This document shows, piece by piece, positions 1 through 19,829 of a DNA stretch of 24,000 nucleotides. Every line of letters starts with the position of its first letter. Position 1 is the first letter of the stretch. The notes beneath the pieces are model-generated. The model was given only the letters and a program-made list of their open reading frames with translations. It was not told the origin of the DNA and did no database searches. This stretch comes from Salibacteraceae bacterium (lineage in GTDB: Bacteria; Bacteroidota; Bacteroidia; Flavobacteriales_G; Salibacteraceae): contig JBLFZF010000019.1 of NCBI GenBank assembly GCA_047610145.1, positions 10,025-34,024 on the forward strand. Direction: 5' to 3'. The position numbers and the translations under genes were made by a program.

Positions 1-1104
1 ATTGAAAAAGGAGGCTATGATCACTTTATGCTGAAGGAAATCTACGAGCAGCCCTCAGTAATTAAAGACACCTTTAGAGGAAGACTCCTAGCCGATCAGG
101 GCATTATTAAGTTGGGTGGTTTAGAAGATTATATTCCCAAGTTCATAAATGCAGATAGAATTATCATTGTTGCCTGTGGAACGTCTTGGCACGCGGGTTT
201 GGTTGCTGAGTATATTTTTGAAGATTTGGCGCGAATTCCTGTTGAGGTTGAATACGCATCTGAATTCAGATATAGAAATCCGATTATCACAGAGAAAGAT
301 GTAGTAATTGCCATTTCTCAAAGTGGCGAAACCGCCGATACGCTTGCGGCAATTAAACTTGCCAAAGAAAAAGGGGCCTTTGTCTACGGAATTTGCAATG
401 TAGTTGGATCTACGATCTCAAGAGAGACACATAGTGGAACATATACACACGCTGGTCCTGAGATTGGAGTAGCGTCTACAAAAGCATTTACAACGCAAAT
501 AACTGTGCTGAGTATGATTGCGCTTAAATTGGCGAAAATCAAGGGAACTATTTCACAAAGAGATTATATGTTGTACTTGCGTGAGTTGGATACTATTCCA
601 ACGAAGGTGCAAGAGGCTTTGGTGAGTGATTCAAAGATTAAAGAGATTGCGAAGATATTTAAAGATGCGCGTAATTTTCTGTACCTCGGAAGAGGATACA
701 ATTTCCCAGTTGCTTTGGAAGGCGCATTGAAACTAAAAGAAATATCCTATATCCATGCCGAGGGCTATCCTGCAGCCGAGATGAAGCATGGTCCTATCGC
801 CTTAATTGATGAGCATATGCCTGTGGTTGTCATTGCCGTGAATAGTAACCACTACGAAAAAGTGGTTAGTAATATTCAGGAAATAAAAACACGTAAGGGT
901 ATAATTATTGCTGTTGTTACTGAAGGAGATACAACCGTAAGAGAACTGGCAGATTACGTTATGGAGGTGCCAAATACTCCAGAGGCCCTGTCACCATTGG
1001 TGACTACTATTCCATTACAATTATTGTCTTATCATATTGCAGTGATGTTAGAGCGAAACGTTGACCAGCCTAGAAACTTAGCAAAGAGCGTTACGGTGGA
1101 GTAG
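1..1104 (+). CDS. glmS: Glutamine--fructose-6-phosphate aminotransferase (isomerizing), C-terminal part; the 5' end lies upstream of the window
   Basis: Frame 1 is open from base 1 (IEKGGYDHFMLKEIYEQP...). It has two SIS-type modules (VACGTSWHAG, ISQSGETADT, LGRGYNFPVALEGALKLKE) and the universal GlmS C-terminus NLAKSVTVE followed by a stop at 1102-1104. Confidence 0.95.
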   Translation: MEKGGYDHFMLKEIYEQPSVIKDTFRGRLLADQGIIKLGGLEDYIPKFINADRIIIVACGTSWHAGLVAEYIFEDLARIPVEVEYASEFRYRNPIITEKDVVIAISQSGETADTLAAIKLAKEKGAFVYGICNVVGSTISRETHSGTYTHAGPEIGVASTKAFTTQITVLSMIALKLAKIKGTISQRDYMLYLRELDTIPTKVQEALVSDSKIKEIAKIFKDARNFLYLGRGYNFPVALEGALKLKEISYIHAEGYPAAEMKHGPIALIDEHMPVVVIAVNSNHYEKVVSNIQEIKTRKGIIIAVVTEGDTTVRELADYVMEVPNTPEALSPLVTTIPLQLLSYHIAVMLERNVDQPRNLAKSVTVE

Positions 1105-1106
1105 TG
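1090..1106 (+). repeat. att-like direct repeat, copy A (the true glmS terminus, GTTACGGTGGAGTAgTG)
   Basis: The 14-mer GTTACGGTGGAGTA is identical to 2219-2232, and 16 of 17 positions match when extended. It encodes VTVE plus the stop codon. Confidence 0.7.
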
Positions 1107-1436
1107 ACTCGTGACAGTTACTCTTACTCCTATAAACTACTCGTAACATTCTCAATATCAATAAGAACTACCCATCTTTGGAGTTCTTCATATTCTGATT
1201 ATCAACAGTATTTATTTGATAGAATAAGGGGTTTTAAGGAACATTTTCTTACCCCTATTGGATACAGAAAGATATCTCAAATCTTCAATAAGGAGGGGTT
1301 AAAAACACCTCGTGGTAATGTGTTTAAAAACAACCACGTTCATTCCATTTATAAGAAAGGTTTAATTCGTGAAGAAAGAATGAATAGAAAAGATATCGTA
1401 GAGGTGTCTCAACCTATCATTGAGGAGTTAAATTAA
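1104..1436 (+). pseudogene. Remnant of a serine-recombinase-type 'Recombinase' domain protein, with the N-terminal catalytic domain and the C-terminal part missing
   Basis: From about 1203 the ORF reads QQYLFDRIRGF...GYRKISQIFNKEGLKTPRGNVFKNNHVHSIYKKG. This matches the pattern (G-s-yr-IA--LN-eGi-TprG--W----V--iL-N) of the central domain of large serine recombinases. The ORF abuts the glmS stop, so no room exists for a catalytic domain. The first ~33 codons (SYSYSYK...) look non-coding. Confidence 0.5.
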
Positions 1437-1452
1437 AAATCCGTTTTTGATT

Positions 1453-1497
1453 AAATGTAAAGTATTTTTGTCATTATGTAAAAAATACTTTACATTT
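1453..1497. promoter_or_regulatory. 17-bp perfect inverted repeat (AAATGTAAAGTATTTTT / AAAAATACTTTACATTT, 11-nt spacer); candidate operator overlapping the cassette promoter
   Basis: Arms at 1453-1469 and 1481-1497 are exact reverse complements. The left arm overlaps a TTTG at 1467-1470. The right arm overlaps TAcaTTTG at 1491-1498, with a 20-nt spacer between the two boxes. Confidence 0.55.
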
Positions 1498-1519
1498 GTT
1501 GAAATATAAAAATTATAAT

Positions 1520-1978
1520 ATGAGTTATTTATTTAGTAATAAGTTTAAAAAAACAAGTGGTGTGGTTTTTTATTTGTCAATACTAGTTGGATTATTTTTA
1601 CTCTTGACAGATAGAATACAAGACATTTTTGTTGTCAACGTTTTTTCAATTTTTTCATATGAATGGTTTGGTTCAGAACAAACAGGTTTTGGTTGGATAG
1701 AAAATGGGTTAGGTGATGAAATTTTTACCCTATTAATTATTGTTTCAGGTTTAATAAACTCTTTTAGTAAAGAGAAAATAGAAGATGAATTAATTTCAAG
1801 GATTAGATTAGAAAGTTTGTCTTTATCTCTCTTTATTAGTTTTGGATTAATAATTATATCTACATTTTTAGTTTTTAATATTAACTATATGTATGTATTG
1901 GTGTTCAACTTATTTTTAATAATTCTCTTATTTAATTTAATATTTAAATTCAGACTATTCAAACACTATAACTCATGA
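1520..1978 (+). CDS. Small multi-pass membrane protein of unknown function (an alternative TTG start lies at 1496)
   Basis: The ORF has four or more hydrophobic segments (VVFYLSILVGLFLLL, IFTLLIIVSGLI, LSLFISFGLIIISTFLVF, VLVFNLFLIILLFNLIF). Its stop overlaps the start of the downstream HTH gene (ATGA at 1975-1978). Confidence 0.7.
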   Translation: MSYLFSNKFKKTSGVVFYLSILVGLFLLLTDRIQDIFVVNVFSIFSYEWFGSEQTGFGWIENGLGDEIFTLLIIVSGLINSFSKEKIEDELISRIRLESLSLSLFISFGLIIISTFLVFNINYMYVLVFNLFLIILLFNLIFKFRLFKHYNS

Positions 1979-2169
1979 AAAATAATTTAAAGTTATATCG
2001 AACAAAGTCTGGATATACACAAGAAGATATTTCAAAAAAAATTGGTGTTTCTAGACAAACAATAAACTCCATTGAAAATAACAGATTTCATCCCTCTATA
2101 TTATTGTGTTTGAAACTTTCAAAAGAATTGGATTGTCGAGTAGATGATTTATTTTTTCTTGAAAGATGA
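1975..2169 (+). CDS. XRE/Cro-C1 family helix-turn-helix transcriptional regulator (64 aa, YozG-like short form)
   Basis: LKLYRTKSGYTQEDISKKIGVSRQTINSIENNRFHPSILLCLKLSKEL is a canonical HTH_3 motif. The gene is translationally coupled to the upstream membrane protein. Confidence 0.9.
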   Translation: MKNNLKLYRTKSGYTQEDISKKIGVSRQTINSIENNRFHPSILLCLKLSKELDCRVDDLFFLER

Positions 2170-2218
2170 TTTTAGAAAAGTTTAAGGGGTAAGATAATTG
2201 GTCACAATGGATTAATCA

Positions 2219-2235
2219 GTTACGGTGGAGTAATG
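2219..2235 (+). repeat. att-like direct repeat, copy B (GTTACGGTGGAGTAaTG), a duplicate of the glmS terminus
   Basis: It is identical to 1090-1103 over 14 nt. In frame it reads S-V-T-V-E-stop (tca gtt acg gtg gag taa), the same last residues and stop position as glmS. Confidence 0.65.
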
Positions 2236-2251
2236 TAAGAAGGGGGTGAAT

Positions 2252-2401
2252 TTAGGAATTCAATCTTCTATTCTTCCATTTCACTCCTTCAACCTTACCA
2301 TCCTTTAACCATTGAAAAACGGTTCTTTCAGATACATCAAATTGTTGTGATAAATCAGCTACTCCATATCTTCCAAATGTAAATGGAAAGAATATGGGAG
2401 A
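2252..2401 (-). pseudogene. Start-less fragment of an excisionase/MerR-like (HTH_17-type) DNA-binding protein
   Basis: Minus-strand translation gives ...GRYGVADLSQQFDVSERTVFQWLKDGKVEGVKWKNRRLNS*. There is no ATG, GTG or TTG in the open stretch, and a stop lies immediately upstream. It is absent from the ORF track because it is under 60 aa. Confidence 0.4.
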
Positions 2402-2626
2402 TTATTGGAATGAAGATATTGTGAGAACTTCTGTTGCAAATCAAAAACTAAACATTCAAGGAGAACATCCCGCTCCATTTCCAAATGAAATATCACATTA
2501 CCAATTCTTCAAACTTCAAATGAGGGGGATTTAGTTCTTGATCCCTTTATGGGAAGTGGAACTGTTGGAAGGGTTTGTGATAAACTGGGAAGGGATTTTG
2601 TTGGGTATGATTTAATGTTATTTTAG
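2373..2626 (+). pseudogene. Fragment of an N4/N6 DNA methyltransferase: N-terminus missing, internal frameshift near 2486-2492, C-terminus cut short
   Basis: Frame A reads NGKNMGDYWNEDI...GEHPAPFPNEI and then hits a stop. Frame B continues ITLPILQTSNEGDLVLDPFMGSGTVGRVCDKLGRDFVGYDL. Together they rebuild the conserved HPAxFP ... GDxVLDPFxGSGTT ... LGRxFiGxE motifs. Confidence 0.7.
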
Positions 2627-3277
2627 AATCACATAAGTAGAATCTTTAAAAATTCTTTGACCAATTATATCAAAAGAATTAGACCCTTCTTCTTTTTGAG
2701 TGATTGAATGAATATATGTCATTTTAATCTTCATTGTATCTCCAATCATTTCTTGAATTGGAGCAATTACAGTATTTACTATTCCCGTTTCATTATCACT
2801 ATATGAACTTTTGTTGATAGTTGAAACAAGGACATCTCTCCAATTAACAAGTGGTGGTAGATTAACATAAACCAGTTCTCCTGTAAATAAATTGAGGTAA
2901 GTTTTAGTAATATTTGCAACAGTATCTCCCTCTAATAACCACCAATATAGATTAGATTCCCAATTTACTTCTTTAGGTTGAGATCCACTCCATAAATCCT
3001 CAATAGGATCTCCGTTTCTAAGTAATTTACCTGTAATGCGTTGAATGGTTTGATTTTCACTTCTATCTAACGTTAAGTTGTAAAACCCATTTAAATCTTT
3101 AGAAAGTTGATAGGATGGATCATCATTTAACCCATCAACAAATTCAATAGTAATTCCTTCTCCATTATCTGTTATTATATCATCTTTACTACAAGAGATA
3201 ATAAAGATTATTAATGAGAATAACAACAACAACTTCCTAACTTCAACCTTTCCAAACAACAGATTTTTTTTAATCAT
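2618..3277 (-). CDS. Lipoprotein of unknown function (219 aa)
   Basis: It has a signal peptide with a lipobox (LLLLFSLIIFIISC-SKDD). I recognise no family. Confidence 0.7.
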   Translation of the reverse strand: MIKKNLLFGKVEVRKLLLLFSLIIFIISCSKDDIITDNGEGITIEFVDGLNDDPSYQLSKDLNGFYNLTLDRSENQTIQRITGKLLRNGDPIEDLWSGSQPKEVNWESNLYWWLLEGDTVANITKTYLNLFTGELVYVNLPPLVNWRDVLVSTINKSSYSDNETGIVNTVIAPIQEMIGDTMKIKMTYIHSITQKEEGSNSFDIIGQRIFKDSTYVILK

Positions 3278-3640
3278 GAACTTACAATTTTAAATGTTTT
3301 TTATTTACGAAATATATAATAGTAAAAAAGTATTAAACATATTTTAATCAAAGAATAAATACCATCTATATAACCAAATCCTTCAACACCTTTATTAGTG
3401 CTTTTTAATTCAATTACCATTAAAAAAAGTAATATAAAAAAATAAATTTTCAAAAATCAATAAACCCTTTCTTTTAAATTTTTAGTAAATTAATTATTGA
3501 TAAAATAATAATTAAATAAACAAATCTTATTAAATCAGAACCAATAGTTTGTGATCAAAAGTAGTTTATCTTAGGATTCAAATACTCAAACATGATTGTT
3601 TTACATATTATTTAAGGACAGGTTCATTGAGTAACTAATT

Positions 3641-3883
3641 TTAGTATTTGGCACCGTTATATGATATCTGAACTCCCTCTTTATATTCAGCTTCAAAATC
3701 TAATTTACCCTCCTTATATCGAACAATTGTTCCAGTAAAAGGGGTTCCTTTATAAATTAATTCATTGTTGTTTTTAACCATATTCTTATTAAAATCAAGA
3801 GAATCAATATCAATGGTTTGTGTCCCACAACTTAGAACTAGGAACAGTAAAAGTAAAATCGAATAATTAAATAATTTTTTCAT
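3641..3883 (-). CDS. Small lipoprotein (80 aa) with a MORN-variant / YwqK-like repeat signature
   Basis: It has a lipobox (LLFLVLSC-GTQ). The C-terminal YKGTPFTGTIVRYKEGKLDFEAEYKEGVQISYNG resembles the Y-x-G-x-x-x-G repeats of YwqK-family (immunity/antitoxin-annotated) proteins. Confidence 0.65.
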   Translation of the reverse strand: MKKLFNYSILLLLFLVLSCGTQTIDIDSLDFNKNMVKNNNELIYKGTPFTGTIVRYKEGKLDFEAEYKEGVQISYNGAKY

Positions 3884-3968
3884 TGTTAGTTTTTTAAATT
3901 AATGTGATATAATTTCTGTTGGATAGTGGGATTATGTAATACAAATGGATAAAAAAGAGAAGAAAGAA

Positions 3969-4298
3969 TCAATACATCAGATGTTGTTTCGATTTATCTT
4001 TCCAGCCTGATTGATTTTTATACGTAACAAAGAATATCTTCAAATCACTTTGATTAGCGTATTCAACAAAATATATCTTTTTATCGGATTGGTTTTGATA
4101 ATCAACAAAATACCATAACCCTTTGTTTCCGTCTGCTTGGTTTTGGTAATCTACTTTGAACACCTTTAAATCACACTGATTTTCATATTCAACGACATAT
4201 ACCTTTAGATCAGATTGATTTGAATACTCAACGGAGAACACCTTTTGAGAATAGGATGTAAGTGGGATAAGGAATAGCATAATTAATAGATACTTCAT
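3969..4298 (-). CDS. Secreted repeat protein (109 aa) with six tandem ~13-aa V-x-Y-x-N-Q-x-D-x-K-[VI]-[YF] units
   Basis: The signal peptide is MKYLLIMLFLIPLTSYSQ. The repeats read VEYSNQSDLKVYV / VEYENQCDLKVFK / VDYQNQADGNKGLWYF / VDYQNQSDKKIYF / VEYANQSDLKIFF / VTYKNQSGWKDK. Confidence 0.75.
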   Translation of the reverse strand: MKYLLIMLFLIPLTSYSQKVFSVEYSNQSDLKVYVVEYENQCDLKVFKVDYQNQADGNKGLWYFVDYQNQSDKKIYFVEYANQSDLKIFFVTYKNQSGWKDKSKQHLMY

Positions 4299-4360
4299 AC
4301 GTTTTAAAATTTTGAGAGTACTAGTAAGATTATATTGATAAAAAGCAGCATTTTTTCAAA

Positions 4361-4726
4361 CTACTTACATCGAATCATTTTAGTTTCTTCTGTTGGTGCA
4401 TTGACTACAATTATGTTGCCATCATTGCCCATTTTTATATTTAATTCTGATTCATACTCTTCTCCCTCTGAAGATGATATCATTAATAGGGTGTAATATT
4501 CATCACTTTTTATTACTCTAACTTCACTAGCACTCCACTCATAACCATAGACAATCAACTGGGTATCTTCTTTAGAAATACTAAGAATCGGACTAATTTC
4601 ACATTGATTTAATGTTTCAACCCAATCTCCGATAAATTTATCAGGTAATTCATTTCCTGTTGTCTGCCCAAAAACAGAAGTTGTCAATGTAATTGTTAAT
4701 ACAATTGTAGTTAATAAAATTTTCAT
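4361..4726 (-). CDS. Secreted protein of unknown function (121 aa)
   Basis: It has an N-terminal signal peptide (MKILLTTIVLTITLTTSVFG-QTTG) and two Cys residues (in the NQCEI motif, and as the penultimate residue). A TAttTTTG -7 box lies 22 nt upstream on the minus strand. Confidence 0.7.
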   Translation of the reverse strand: MKILLTTIVLTITLTTSVFGQTTGNELPDKFIGDWVETLNQCEISPILSISKEDTQLIVYGYEWSASEVRVIKSDEYYTLLMISSSEGEEYESELNIKMGNDGNIIVVNAPTEETKMIRCK

Positions 4727-4748
4727 GGTTTAATTTTTAAGTTCAATT

Positions 4749-4756
4749 CAAAAATA
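4749..4756 (-). promoter_or_regulatory. Candidate Bacteroidetes -7 box (TAttTTTG) for the minus-strand exported-protein genes
   Basis: The plus strand reads CAAAAATA, which is the reverse complement of TATTTTTG. It lies 22 nt upstream of the start at 4726. No convincing -33 element was seen. Confidence 0.3.
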
Positions 4757-4857
4757 ATAATTAAAGATTAATGATTCGTATTATTGTAATGCGATACAAT
4801 TAACTTAATTCCGTTCGGTTATATGTTAATCATTTTAATTCGAGAATAGATTCCATT

Positions 4858-4903
4858 TGGGCGAGGGTTGTCCGCCTAGCTTAAGCTTCGGTGGATTAAT
4901 AAT
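4858..4903 (+). repeat. Possible degenerate third copy (C) of the last ~55 nt of glmS
   Basis: A gapped alignment by eye pairs GgGCGAgg-GTTGtCC-GCCTAG---CTTAaG...C-TT-CGGTGGAtTAaT with glmS 1051-1105 GaGCGAaacGTTGaCCaGCCTAGaaaCTTAGc...GCgTTaCGGTGGAgTAgT. It sits exactly where the composition returns to core-like. Confidence 0.3.
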
Positions 4904-5091
4904 CTAAGGGTTTTGACTGATATTCGGGCAGGGATTGGAGCAAGCTACCGCGTAGCGCGAAAAGCCCGGTGCACCAAAGTTTTCAAAGCGTCCGTAGCCA
5001 TTTTGGCGTAGGAGGCTAACGAAGGTGGAGCCCGCCAAAAAAATCTTGAGGTTTTCTATTAAAATTTACAAGAATTCCATTGCATAATTAA

Positions 5092-6678
<1,587 letters not shown>

Positions 6679-6747
6679 TTAGACTATAGGCATGAGATTA
6701 TAGTTATTAAAACTATCTCAGATCTTAAATATCAAATCTAGTAAAAT

Positions 6748-7023
6748 ATGTACTTAGAAATTGTAACCCCTGAAGCAGCCATTGTTAGCGGAGAAGTAGA
6801 TTCTGTAACCGTTCCTGGTGTTGAAGGTCCTTTCCAAATGCTAAATAATCACGCAGCCATTGTATCTCTATTAGATGCTGGAAAAGTGATGTTTAGAGGA
6901 ACTCCAACAATCGCTCAAGGTCATGAGAGTAAGTTTACGCAAGAAGACGGAAAATGGATTCTTGAAATAAACGGTGGTACCGTTGAGTGCAGTGATAATA
7001 AAGTAATTGTTTTAGCAGATTAA
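6748..7023 (+). CDS. atpC: F0F1 ATP synthase subunit epsilon, short form (91 aa)
   Basis: MYLEIVTPEAAIVSGEVDSVTVPGVEGPFQMLNNHAAIVSLL is the epsilon beta-sandwich. The gene lies directly downstream of atpD. Confidence 0.9.
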   Translation: MYLEIVTPEAAIVSGEVDSVTVPGVEGPFQMLNNHAAIVSLLDAGKVMFRGTPTIAQGHESKFTQEDGKWILEINGGTVECSDNKVIVLAD

Positions 7024-19270: not shown

Positions 19271-19829
19271 TTCTTTTGCTTGTCCAAAAGAAACGAACCA
19301 AAGAAAAAGACCCTTTTACTAAGGTATTTTTGATTCACTTTTAGTTCATAAAAACCGTTCGCATGTTTCTAAATTCACTACAAGGCTTCGCGAATTTTTA
19401 ACGAAACATGCTCACATATACTCAAGTAAAAGATTTTAATATTGGAATGAGCCAAAACTAAAAATTGCCCTCGCATTCGACACTTCAACTTCGTTCAGTA
19501 CGGCTTCAGGTTTGGACCCCTTCCGTCAATGCTTAGCTTTGACATCTTTCCCTAACTAGGGAAGGATCTTTCTAATCTCTTACATTAGGATCAAACGCTC
19601 CCCTCCTTTTTAAGGGAGGGGTGGCCGCGATAGCGGACGGGGTGGGTGCGTTAGCGATAGCAGTGTAAATCCTTTTTTATTGTCAATGACCTTTCGACTC
19701 GCTTCACGAGCTACCTTCGTTACAGAATATATTCTGTTTCTCGATAATGCTCAAGGTGACAATAAAAAAGATTGAAACGAATAGCGCGACCGTACCGAAG
19801 GTAGGGAAACGCCCTTAAAAATAGCGCAT

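Follow-up and report, generated by a model that had tools for sequence, protein, structure and literature searches.

The staphylococcal cassette chromosome (SCC) element SCCmec and its relatives are inserted at the 3' end of rlmH (orfX) by the serine recombinases CcrAB or CcrC, and the target gene is kept intact. Their junctions resemble direct repeats of 15-18 nt, and recombinase-less pseudo cassettes, which can be moved in trans, are common. In this study, we analyzed a 24,000-nt stretch of a Salibacteraceae bacterium genome (GenBank assembly GCA_047610145.1, contig JBLFZF010000019.1, positions 10,025 to 34,024 of the forward strand; hereafter the window, in whose coordinates positions are given), focusing on an AT-rich island between glmS and atpD. 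Very probably the island (1090-4860) is a composite one, built at the end of glmS by integrative elements of marine Flavobacteriia that encode a large serine recombinase (LSR). It is an SCC-like LSR island with an unusual recombinase architecture. The likeness to SCC lies in the placing of an LSR island in the last codons of a housekeeping gene, in gene-proximal entry, in tandem composites and in recombinase-less units. The present elements differ in that they belong to Bacteroidota, use an AC within a Thr codon of glmS and encode a single LSR; with no ccrAB or ccrC at rlmH they are not members of SCC, and the LSRs of the family reach only 29-37 bits against the NCBIfam CcrA model, the cut-off of which is 700. 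They differ further in that the LSR gene abuts the attachment site of the free element (attP), across which lies what is probably a detachable C-terminal module.

Phage LSRs (phiC31, Bxb1, A118/LI, SPbeta) resemble the enzymes described here in their Resolvase and Recombinase domains, short dyad sites, 2-nt crossover and lack of duplication beyond the dinucleotide. In the present family, however, the outer half-site repeats are perfect, of unusual length (20 nt) and placed 15-36 nt away from the centre; moreover, the elements are not phages (no IMG/VR match) and no separate directionality factor was identified. With Tn7 they have in common the use of the conserved glmS 3' end as a safe harbour, chemistry and anatomy being otherwise different. 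Programmed -1 frameshifting is known from the transposases of IS3/IS911 and from dnaX of E. coli, and in the intP/intX system of Myxococcus phage Mx8 the attachment site lies inside the integrase gene, which is altered by integration. The suicidal tyrosine integrases of the archaeal SSV type likewise have an attachment site within their gene, which is split on integration, a property stated to be exclusive to archaea (PMC8371274).

The loci of the window were compared against 130 related loci (labelled from L001). The window opens within glmS, of which the 3' 1.1 kb is present (1-1104, plus strand, truncated by the window start, stop codon TAG at 1102-1104), and the closest genomes are Aequorivita, Patiriisocius and an uncultured Flavobacteriaceae metagenome-assembled genome (L001-L003; GlmS 89-91% identical at the amino acid level). 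A JGI metagenome contig, Ga0535642_0000007 (L089), is identical to the window. GC content is 41% in glmS, 26% in 1105-2235, 28% in 2236-4860 and 39-42% from about 4860 onward, in agreement with an earlier note, made from the letters of the window alone, that had seen an AT-rich island from the glmS stop to about 4860. The 14-mer on which that note was built, GTTACGGTGGAGTA, is present at exactly two sites, 1090-1103 and 2219-2232, with no other occurrence at up to two mismatches, so that it is no common word within the 24 kb. The two occurrences were reproduced in 0 of 100 shuffles, and the extended repeat matches at 16 of 17 positions, as had been noted, with a local alignment score of 29 (shuffle mean 13, maximum 26). 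The second copy (copy B, 2216-2233) has the codons TCA GTT ACG GTG GAG TAA and does read S-V-T-V-E-stop.

Both copies lie in attachment sites of a family of LSR elements. The left site, attL (1053-1134), comprises a host B arm (1053-1092), the dinucleotide AC (1093-1094) and an element P' arm (1095-1134) with an inverted-repeat half-site at 1111-1134. The right site, attR (2182-2263), comprises an element P arm (2182-2221; half-site 2184-2205), AC (2222-2223), an older glmS end that was displaced (2216-2233) and, past it, about 30 nt of DNA that is likewise older. In each case the crossover AC opens the Thr codon of a glmS ending S-V-T-V-E-stop. When the P arm was compared with the reverse complement of the P' arm in register around AC, 16 of the 24 outer positions agreed (shuffle p = 3e-5), and attL and attR of the window are built from half-sites with dyad symmetry about the central dinucleotide. 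The half-site motif of the family, GGAGTAAGAGTAATTGTCAC, was found in the 24 kb only in attL (minus strand) and at 2184-2205. P' arms like that of the window are also present in L087, L088, L097, L098 and L111, and 2176-2232 shares 84% identity with the arm found immediately after the LSR stop codon of L081. The same P arm stands at 11 LSR-linked junctions (from further metagenome LSR genes), each with a different right flank, either a native glmS end with its terminator or resident small open reading frames (ORFs).

The position of strand exchange is best seen in two intact relatives, L098 and L111, where the GGAGTAAGAGTAATTGTCAC arm abuts the LSR stop codon and its reverse-complement 20-mer lies just inside attL; the P/P' inverted repeats agree at 20/20 positions in L098 and 19/20 in L111, with a spacing of 36+2+36 nt around AC. 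The attL of L098 reads ...TCTGTA-AC-AGTGGAGTAG... and its attR ...AACTATT-AC-TGTAGAATAA, followed by a terminator, so that the two (GTA AC AGT and ATT AC TGT) have nothing but AC in common. As their sequences diverge immediately to the left and right of AC, the exchange can be placed at the dinucleotide, and it appears to be confined to this 2-nt core, as for serine recombinases. The tension to which the earlier note had drawn attention, between a serine-like recombinase and long direct repeats, is thereby dissolved; beyond AC, the 14-mers are alike because the glmS C-terminus encoded by the two arms is the same. Judging from the L098 pair, the end of glmS would be element-derived from the third base of the Thr codon onward (G GTG GAG TAG). 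The predicted joint left by excision is ...AGAGCGTTAC|GGTGGAGTAATGTAAG (window 1094|2224), and that of the circle ...TTAATCAGTTAC|GGTGGAGTAGTGACTCG (window 2223|1095).

Intact elements of 8-9.5 kb occupy the same glmS position in Polaribacter-like genomes (L098/L099 and L111). Their order is glmS, a small ORF, small genes including one for an HTH_17 protein, a gene for a resolvase/invertase of 207-209 aa (L098 13396-14025), a ParB-N6/N4 methylase gene, an LSR gene of 636-641 codons, the junction and native downstream DNA. The LSR has Resolvase and Recombinase domains (and a zinc ribbon), its gene is present in L081, L098, L111 and L104-L113, and the recombinase is of the serine type, as the earlier note had supposed. 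GC content is 28% in the intact elements against 34-37% in the host flanks. Occupied and unoccupied sites could be compared directly. To the right of the glmS terminus L081 (occupied) is identical to L082-L086 (unoccupied) except for one base in a GG run, and to the left it is unrelated to them; given the fragmented neighbouring genes of the sister contigs, a long-read error is the probable cause of this single difference. Likewise, the right flanks of the elements in L098 and L111 correspond to the sequence immediately past glmS in Polaribacter L021 and L016, and the terminator hairpin is shared as well. Together with the homology of 2176-2232 to the LSR-proximal arm, these pairs bear out the proposal of integration into the 3' end of glmS with a replacement gene end. 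Tandem arrays were found elsewhere (L081, L087, L102, L103, L104, L113 and L117), in which small-ORF copies displaced from glmS bear frameshifts or stops. In L081 the full-length element at glmS carries an ArsR/MerR-like regulator and a MerT/HMA mercury-transport gene (2527-3703), together with a PD-(D/E)XK nuclease gene and a ParB-like gene. A scan of IMG/VR with the small-ORF profile gave no relatives, and literature searches revealed no report of LSR elements at glmS or in Flavobacteria; the family is a previously undescribed one of mobile elements in marine Flavobacteria.

In the window, 1105-2235 forms a 1.1-kb unit (the mini-element) consisting of attL, the small ORF, a cargo cassette and attR. 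The small ORF (1104-1436, plus strand, 110 codons) has a GTG start that overlaps the glmS stop (TAGTG). The cargo cassette begins at its 5' end with a palindrome (1446-1504; 29-nt arms, 83% complementary), a probable operator/promoter of the operon that follows. The latter encodes a hydrophobic multi-pass protein of 152 aa (1520-1978, plus strand; the ORF is open from TTG 1496) and an XRE/Cro-type helix-turn-helix (HTH) regulator of 64 aa (1975-2169, plus strand; Pfam HTH_3, 2e-16), which in L082, L097 and L102 have counterparts of 89-97% and 92-95% amino acid identity, respectively. No Pfam, NCBIfam or PADLOC family was matched by the 152-aa protein, and PADLOC and NCBIfam searches with the island proteins returned nothing beyond generic XRE matches. 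In L098 and L111 the genes after the small ORF are other than this cargo. Since the LSR gene is found in the intact relatives only and none in the window, the window holds a non-autonomous derivative.

Comparison between hosts points to horizontal movement of this derivative. Identity to the window is 89% for the mini-element and 66% for glmS in L102, 93% and 68-73% in L097, and 96% (small-ORF region only) and 72% in L111, the break in identity falling at the junction. Synonymous sites of glmS are saturated between these hosts, and small-ORF dS is 0.27-1.05. A unit that is 89-93% identical where glmS is 66-73% identical must have moved horizontally, and its near constancy in distantly related hosts makes a non-autonomous element most likely; simple in-place decay of the integration machinery, as envisaged in the earlier note, is not supported by these values. 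Since a horizontally mobile unit is without a recombinase, we infer that it is moved in trans by the LSRs of full-length relatives, this being the simplest reading. The attachment arms of L102 are of a different sequence type despite the 89% identical interior, and its unit of small ORF, membrane-protein gene and XRE gene ends at a P-arm-type junction. In L097 a second small ORF, in inverted orientation, follows the XRE gene directly, and a P arm was not seen; on the contig (1-3400) two glmS/small-ORF units, one 93% and the other 70-79% identical to the window, converge on one common membrane/XRE cassette. In L082 (9020-8319), which is without a P arm, the cassette and its palindrome are inverted and 89% identical to window 1453-2154; the resolvase/invertase of the intact elements could be what flips it.

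The small ORF was described in the earlier note as a catalytic-domain-less recombinase remnant. It is instead a full-length gene, which is also present in the intact elements and is under purifying selection, with pairwise ratios of nonsynonymous to synonymous substitution (dN/dS) of about 0.2 (range 0.13-0.34). We found 394 homologues, all of about 100-170 aa and 66-93% identical among the 120 matches listed, and an exhaustive profile search gave 514 clusters at 50% identity. In the 6/6 contexts looked up, the ORF starts at or just after the glmS stop. The match to Pfam Recombinase is below threshold (E 0.004), the best of the AlphaFold models has a pLDDT of 82 (the other four were poor), a Foldseek search of the PDB gave nothing significant, and PDB sequences searched with a profile yielded no more than a weak HTH-like match to RpoN. 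Within the LSR of the intact elements the small ORF matches the extreme C-terminal HTH-like module and nothing else (BLASTP E 0.002; hhalign E 7e-4).

A second LSR family (family 2; L116-L120), with an enzyme of 603 aa that is 27% identical to that of the first (family 1), shows the same arrangement. Its LSR gene ends beside a mimic of the glmS end, TCC GCA ACC GTT GAG TAG, within a palindrome centred on the AC of ACC, and is followed by a homologue of the small ORF with 35% identity, the product of which does reach the Pfam Recombinase threshold (25.7 bits). The palindrome (GTACTCGC.ATTC ... GAATAGCGAGTAC) is unrelated to that of family 1, and the target is the same AC of the glmS Thr codon. 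The family-2 element of L118 has inserted at glmS, and the GlmS of its host shares just 47% identity with that of the window. L117 is a tandem of two family-2 elements, 94% identical to one another.

Among the 150 best representative clusters of the small ORF, two are full LSRs that carry the small-ORF domain as an in-frame C-terminal fusion (P0187, 726 aa; P0197, 710 aa). The fused gene of P0187 (contig L128) has element genes on both sides, and its linker codons YSTVTD form an imperfect palindrome, the left side of which resembles the P arm of family 1. These fusions and the linker palindrome suggest that the small ORF is best seen as a detachable C-terminal domain of the recombinase. An integrated counterpart of L128 was not found. 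The fused gene (4824-7004) lies on a contig of 10.3 kb that also encodes a rolling-circle-type Rep (PF23343), and this relative may replicate as an episome. A [Y/H]-S-T-V motif was observed about 25-45 residues upstream of the small-ORF domain in the divergent proteins P0160, P0187, P0197, P0232 and P0253; its position in L128 is that of the palindrome centre (TCT ACA GTC), and it may mark a crossover region translated in the recombinase frame. For P0160 and P0197 the context is uninformative, as their genes stand close to or at the end of a contig.

Between the LSR and the small ORF of the glmS-targeting families stand a stop codon and a shift to the -1 frame. An in-frame A_AAA_AAG stands one codon before the LSR stop in family 1 and three codons before it in family 2; such heptamers occur about 1.2 times per 1000 codons, and the family-2 LSR gene holds just this one. 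From there the -1 frame runs uninterrupted across the attachment site as far as the small-ORF stop, for 128 codons in the reconstructed attP of L098/L111 and for 143-154 codons in L117, L119 and L120. The small ORF stands in a different frame relative to glmS in each of the two families but is at -1 relative to the LSR in both. Translational coupling to glmS was also considered as the conserved feature of the small ORF and is less likely, as its frame relation to glmS is not constant. The attP palindrome of family 1 is predicted to form a 21-bp hairpin (-38 to -41 kcal/mol) that starts 5-6 nt after the heptamer and that a lone integrated copy could not form; the palindrome of family 2 lies farther off, about 47 nt downstream of the heptamer, and a strong hairpin is predicted for family 1 only. 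Thus -1 frameshifting at A_AAA_AAG could fuse LSR and small ORF. We tentatively propose that attP lies inside or at the end of the LSR gene, that integration detaches the C-terminal domain, and that this is rejoined by -1 frameshifting only when P and P' are contiguous, in the circle or in a tandem, with stimulation by the hairpin in one family, so that the element would read its own integration state; we hold this possible, at somewhat less than even chances. The P' arm must supply the stop codon of glmS in these families, which under the proposal would leave LSR and small ORF to be rejoined only where P and P' meet.

The arrangement can be compared with both kinds of precedent. Like the genes of suicidal integrases, the LSR frames of L128/P0187 and P0197 pass through a palindromic site into the small-ORF domain; unlike them, the recombinase here is of the serine type, and no more than an accessory module at its C-terminus, about 110 aa long, would be detached. 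Literature searches gave no report of a serine-recombinase counterpart of gene-splitting integrases. With IS3/IS911 and dnaX there is agreement in the A_AAA_AAG heptamer, in a zero-frame stop just after it and, in family 1, in a hairpin 5-6 nt downstream. The present case, a frameshift candidate, differs from these in that the putative stimulatory hairpin is the attP palindrome itself, available only when P and P' are joined.

Beyond attR the island appears older and damaged. An internal piece of an HTH gene (2264-2366, minus strand, 100 nt) with both ends missing is 90% identical at the nucleotide level to L113 1925-2027 and to L114, in which the matching gene sits just upstream of the LSR gene. 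It is followed by a frameshifted 3' fragment of an N6/N4 DNA methyltransferase gene (2352-2628, plus strand; Pfam N6_N4_Mtase profile positions 136-211 of 221), with 81-87% nucleotide identity to the methylase genes of L081, L098 and L111. The 5' parts of both are deleted, and the HTH piece is reached after about 40 nt. The segment 2236-2640 reads as the wreck of a second element of the family. To its right are four ORFs for small secreted proteins or lipoproteins (2618-3277, 3641-3883, 3969-4298 and 4361-4726, minus strand) with lipobox or signal-peptide N-termini and a GC content of 28%. The third encodes a DUF6150 protein (4e-23), the 121-aa secreted protein has no homologue among 5.8 billion proteins, and the region is not similar to any compared locus; these genes are probably cargo of an older insertion. 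Within the DUF6150 gene, 39-nt periodic repeats (4000-4232) encode reiterated ...YxNQxDxKV(F/Y)... units.

The earlier note had tentatively placed a third, decayed look-alike of the glmS end (copy C) at the right-hand compositional boundary (4858-4903). In Smith-Waterman alignment with stringent gap penalties, copy C reached a score of 16, with shuffles averaging 12 (p about 0.06). With lenient gaps it ranked in the top 0.2% or better of 76-nt windows in 4/4 scoring schemes; unrelated sites of the window matched or beat it in 3/4 of these, and the alignment costs about 6 gaps per 50 or so columns. Copy C is an imperfect palindrome, TCCGCCTAGCTT/AAGCTTCGGTGGA, and the motif scan of the window did not detect in it the inverted repeat typical of both genuine attachment sites. 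There was no terminator call, the RNA folding z-score was about 0 and Rfam returned nothing. These results give it no support as an attachment site, and of the two successive insertions proposed earlier, more than one event is upheld by the second-element fragments to the right of copy B, but not copy C as a third site. The following spacer (4904-5060) is non-coding, of normal GC content and lineage-specific; it is not present in L001-L003 and has no Rfam match. The contigs L091, L095 and L096, from different samples and with identical AtpD, all begin at the equivalent of 4981 and are 95% identical from there onward. Their common start suggests an assembly-graph branch point and a strain-variable boundary about 75 nt to the right of copy C, the variable region thus reaching past it. 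DNA similarity to relatives returns only at about 5061-5104.

The succession glmS-atpD is a conserved arrangement in Flavobacteriaceae, the size of the gap being variable. It is 116-404 bp in L014, L028, L005 and L022, about 1.9 kb in L002 and L003 (a sulfotransferase-like gene and a class IV aminotransferase gene), and 4.5-5 kb in many genera including L001 (a TonB receptor and a lipoprotein gene). Window 1105-5060 has no DNA-level similarity to these loci, and no remnants of the sulfotransferase-like, class IV aminotransferase or TonB receptor genes were found within the window; the island is therefore lineage-specific. The empty-site comparison suggested earlier had a mixed outcome, as relatives without the island (with other contents in the gap) and unoccupied sites in reference genomes do exist, but the nearest relatives, L002 and L003, have no clean empty site, and an exact one for the window's own genome was not found among the relatives compared. 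Among 80 species genomes the glmS tail is GTN ACN GTN GAR-stop in 80/80, and a search of their 10-kb flanks for direct repeats of the tail gave no real one; a 13-mer match in L024 was rejected as a coincidence inside the TonB plug motif PVTVE. The glmS of the window has AGC as its last Ser codon (1087-1089), where nearly all other Flavobacteriaceae tails have TCN (L028 has AGT). The displaced end has TCA (2216-2218), and this two-step difference falls on the host side of the crossover. Far downstream, tRNA-Lys(CTT) (19548-19618) is followed by a Flavo-1 RNA (RF01705, 50 bits; 19646-19795).

A composite LSR island would have arisen as follows. The LSR would exchange strands at the AC of the Thr codon in the invariant ending S-V-T-V-E-stop of glmS; the P' arm of the element would supply the rest (N GTG GAG TAG), leaving glmS intact, and the original gene end would be displaced to the far junction. 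New insertions would always enter at the glmS-proximal site and so push older material to the right, in the window the inverted, internally deleted pieces of another family element at 2236-2640 and then the AT-rich orphan secreted-protein genes to about 4860. The comparisons show the anatomy of the attachment sites, the homology to intact elements, the occupied and empty sites and the horizontal spread; the order of these events and the origin of 2640-4860 are inferred. Several observations weigh against this scheme. No recombinase gene was found within the window (ORF list, Pfam). Several substitutions and two 1-nt indels set the window's P arm apart from the LSR-linked consensus, and in this diverged form the arm may no longer be recombination-competent. 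The motif scan of the window gave no recognisable attachment site at the right-hand limit of the composite island. The HTH and methylase fragments are inverted relative to the family elements, for which the scheme gives no explanation. In the nearest relatives, L002 and L003, two unrelated housekeeping genes lie between glmS and atpD in place of a clean empty site, and the double unit of L097 may be a real inversion/duplication or a chimeric metagenome assembly via the common cassette.

Of the other explanations, the most serious is that the mini-element is an in-situ deletion derivative of a full-length element that was inserted once and never moved as a 1.1-kb unit. The greater divergence of the window P arm compared with LSR-linked arms, the adjacent deletions and rearrangements at 2264-2628 and the inverted L082 cassette without a P arm would all be expected from it; yet the same unit recurs in L102, with a P-arm-type junction, and in L097, where no P arm was seen, at 89-93% identity against 66-73% for glmS, and as the intact elements of L098 and L111 have different genes after the small ORF, identical deletions would have had to recur. 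We regard it as unlikely. Much less probable still is the model of two tandem long-direct-repeat insertions in the style of tyrosine integrases, with glmS-end copies at 1090, 2219 and 4858 and decay in place. It would account for the 14-17-nt repeat and for a copy C that ranks in the top 0.2% with lenient gaps at a compositional boundary, but a tyrosine integrase was found neither in the window nor in 50 related loci, every intact relative has an LSR, L098 attL and attR share AC only, copy C is equalled by unrelated sites and is without the half-site motif, and the ORF at the left junction is under purifying selection. A chance repeat in a native, strain-variable AT-rich intergenic region could appeal to the variability of the glmS-atpD interval across Flavobacteriaceae and to the coincidental 13-mer of L024; it is scarcely credible given that 0/100 shuffles reproduce the repeat, that 11 other loci have an LSR-proximal arm homologous to the flank of copy B and that the arms are mirror-symmetric. 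Although glmS is the classical target of Tn7, a Tn7-like (attTn7) insertion has next to no probability, the junction being inside the last glmS codons rather than about 25 bp downstream, with no 5-bp target duplication and no TnsA-E-like genes or Tn7 end repeats in the window or related elements.

The composite LSR island at glmS has several implications. The last codons of glmS are targeted by at least two LSR lineages that are 27% identical, in hosts whose GlmS proteins are 47% identical; as LSRs are sought as tools for genome engineering, those whose attB is nearly universal among bacteria are of practical interest. For annotation, the 110-codon ORF overlapping the glmS stop is a real and widespread gene without family assignment. 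Growth in the manner of SCC, by gene-proximal accretion, recombinase-less cassettes and tandem arrays, takes place also in the abundant marine Flavobacteriia. The arrangement of LSR gene, attachment site and small ORF could provide control of directionality without a separate factor, through gene splitting and possibly frameshifting. If this is true, it would be a bacterial serine-recombinase counterpart of the archaeal suicidal integrases, with a built-in directionality switch.

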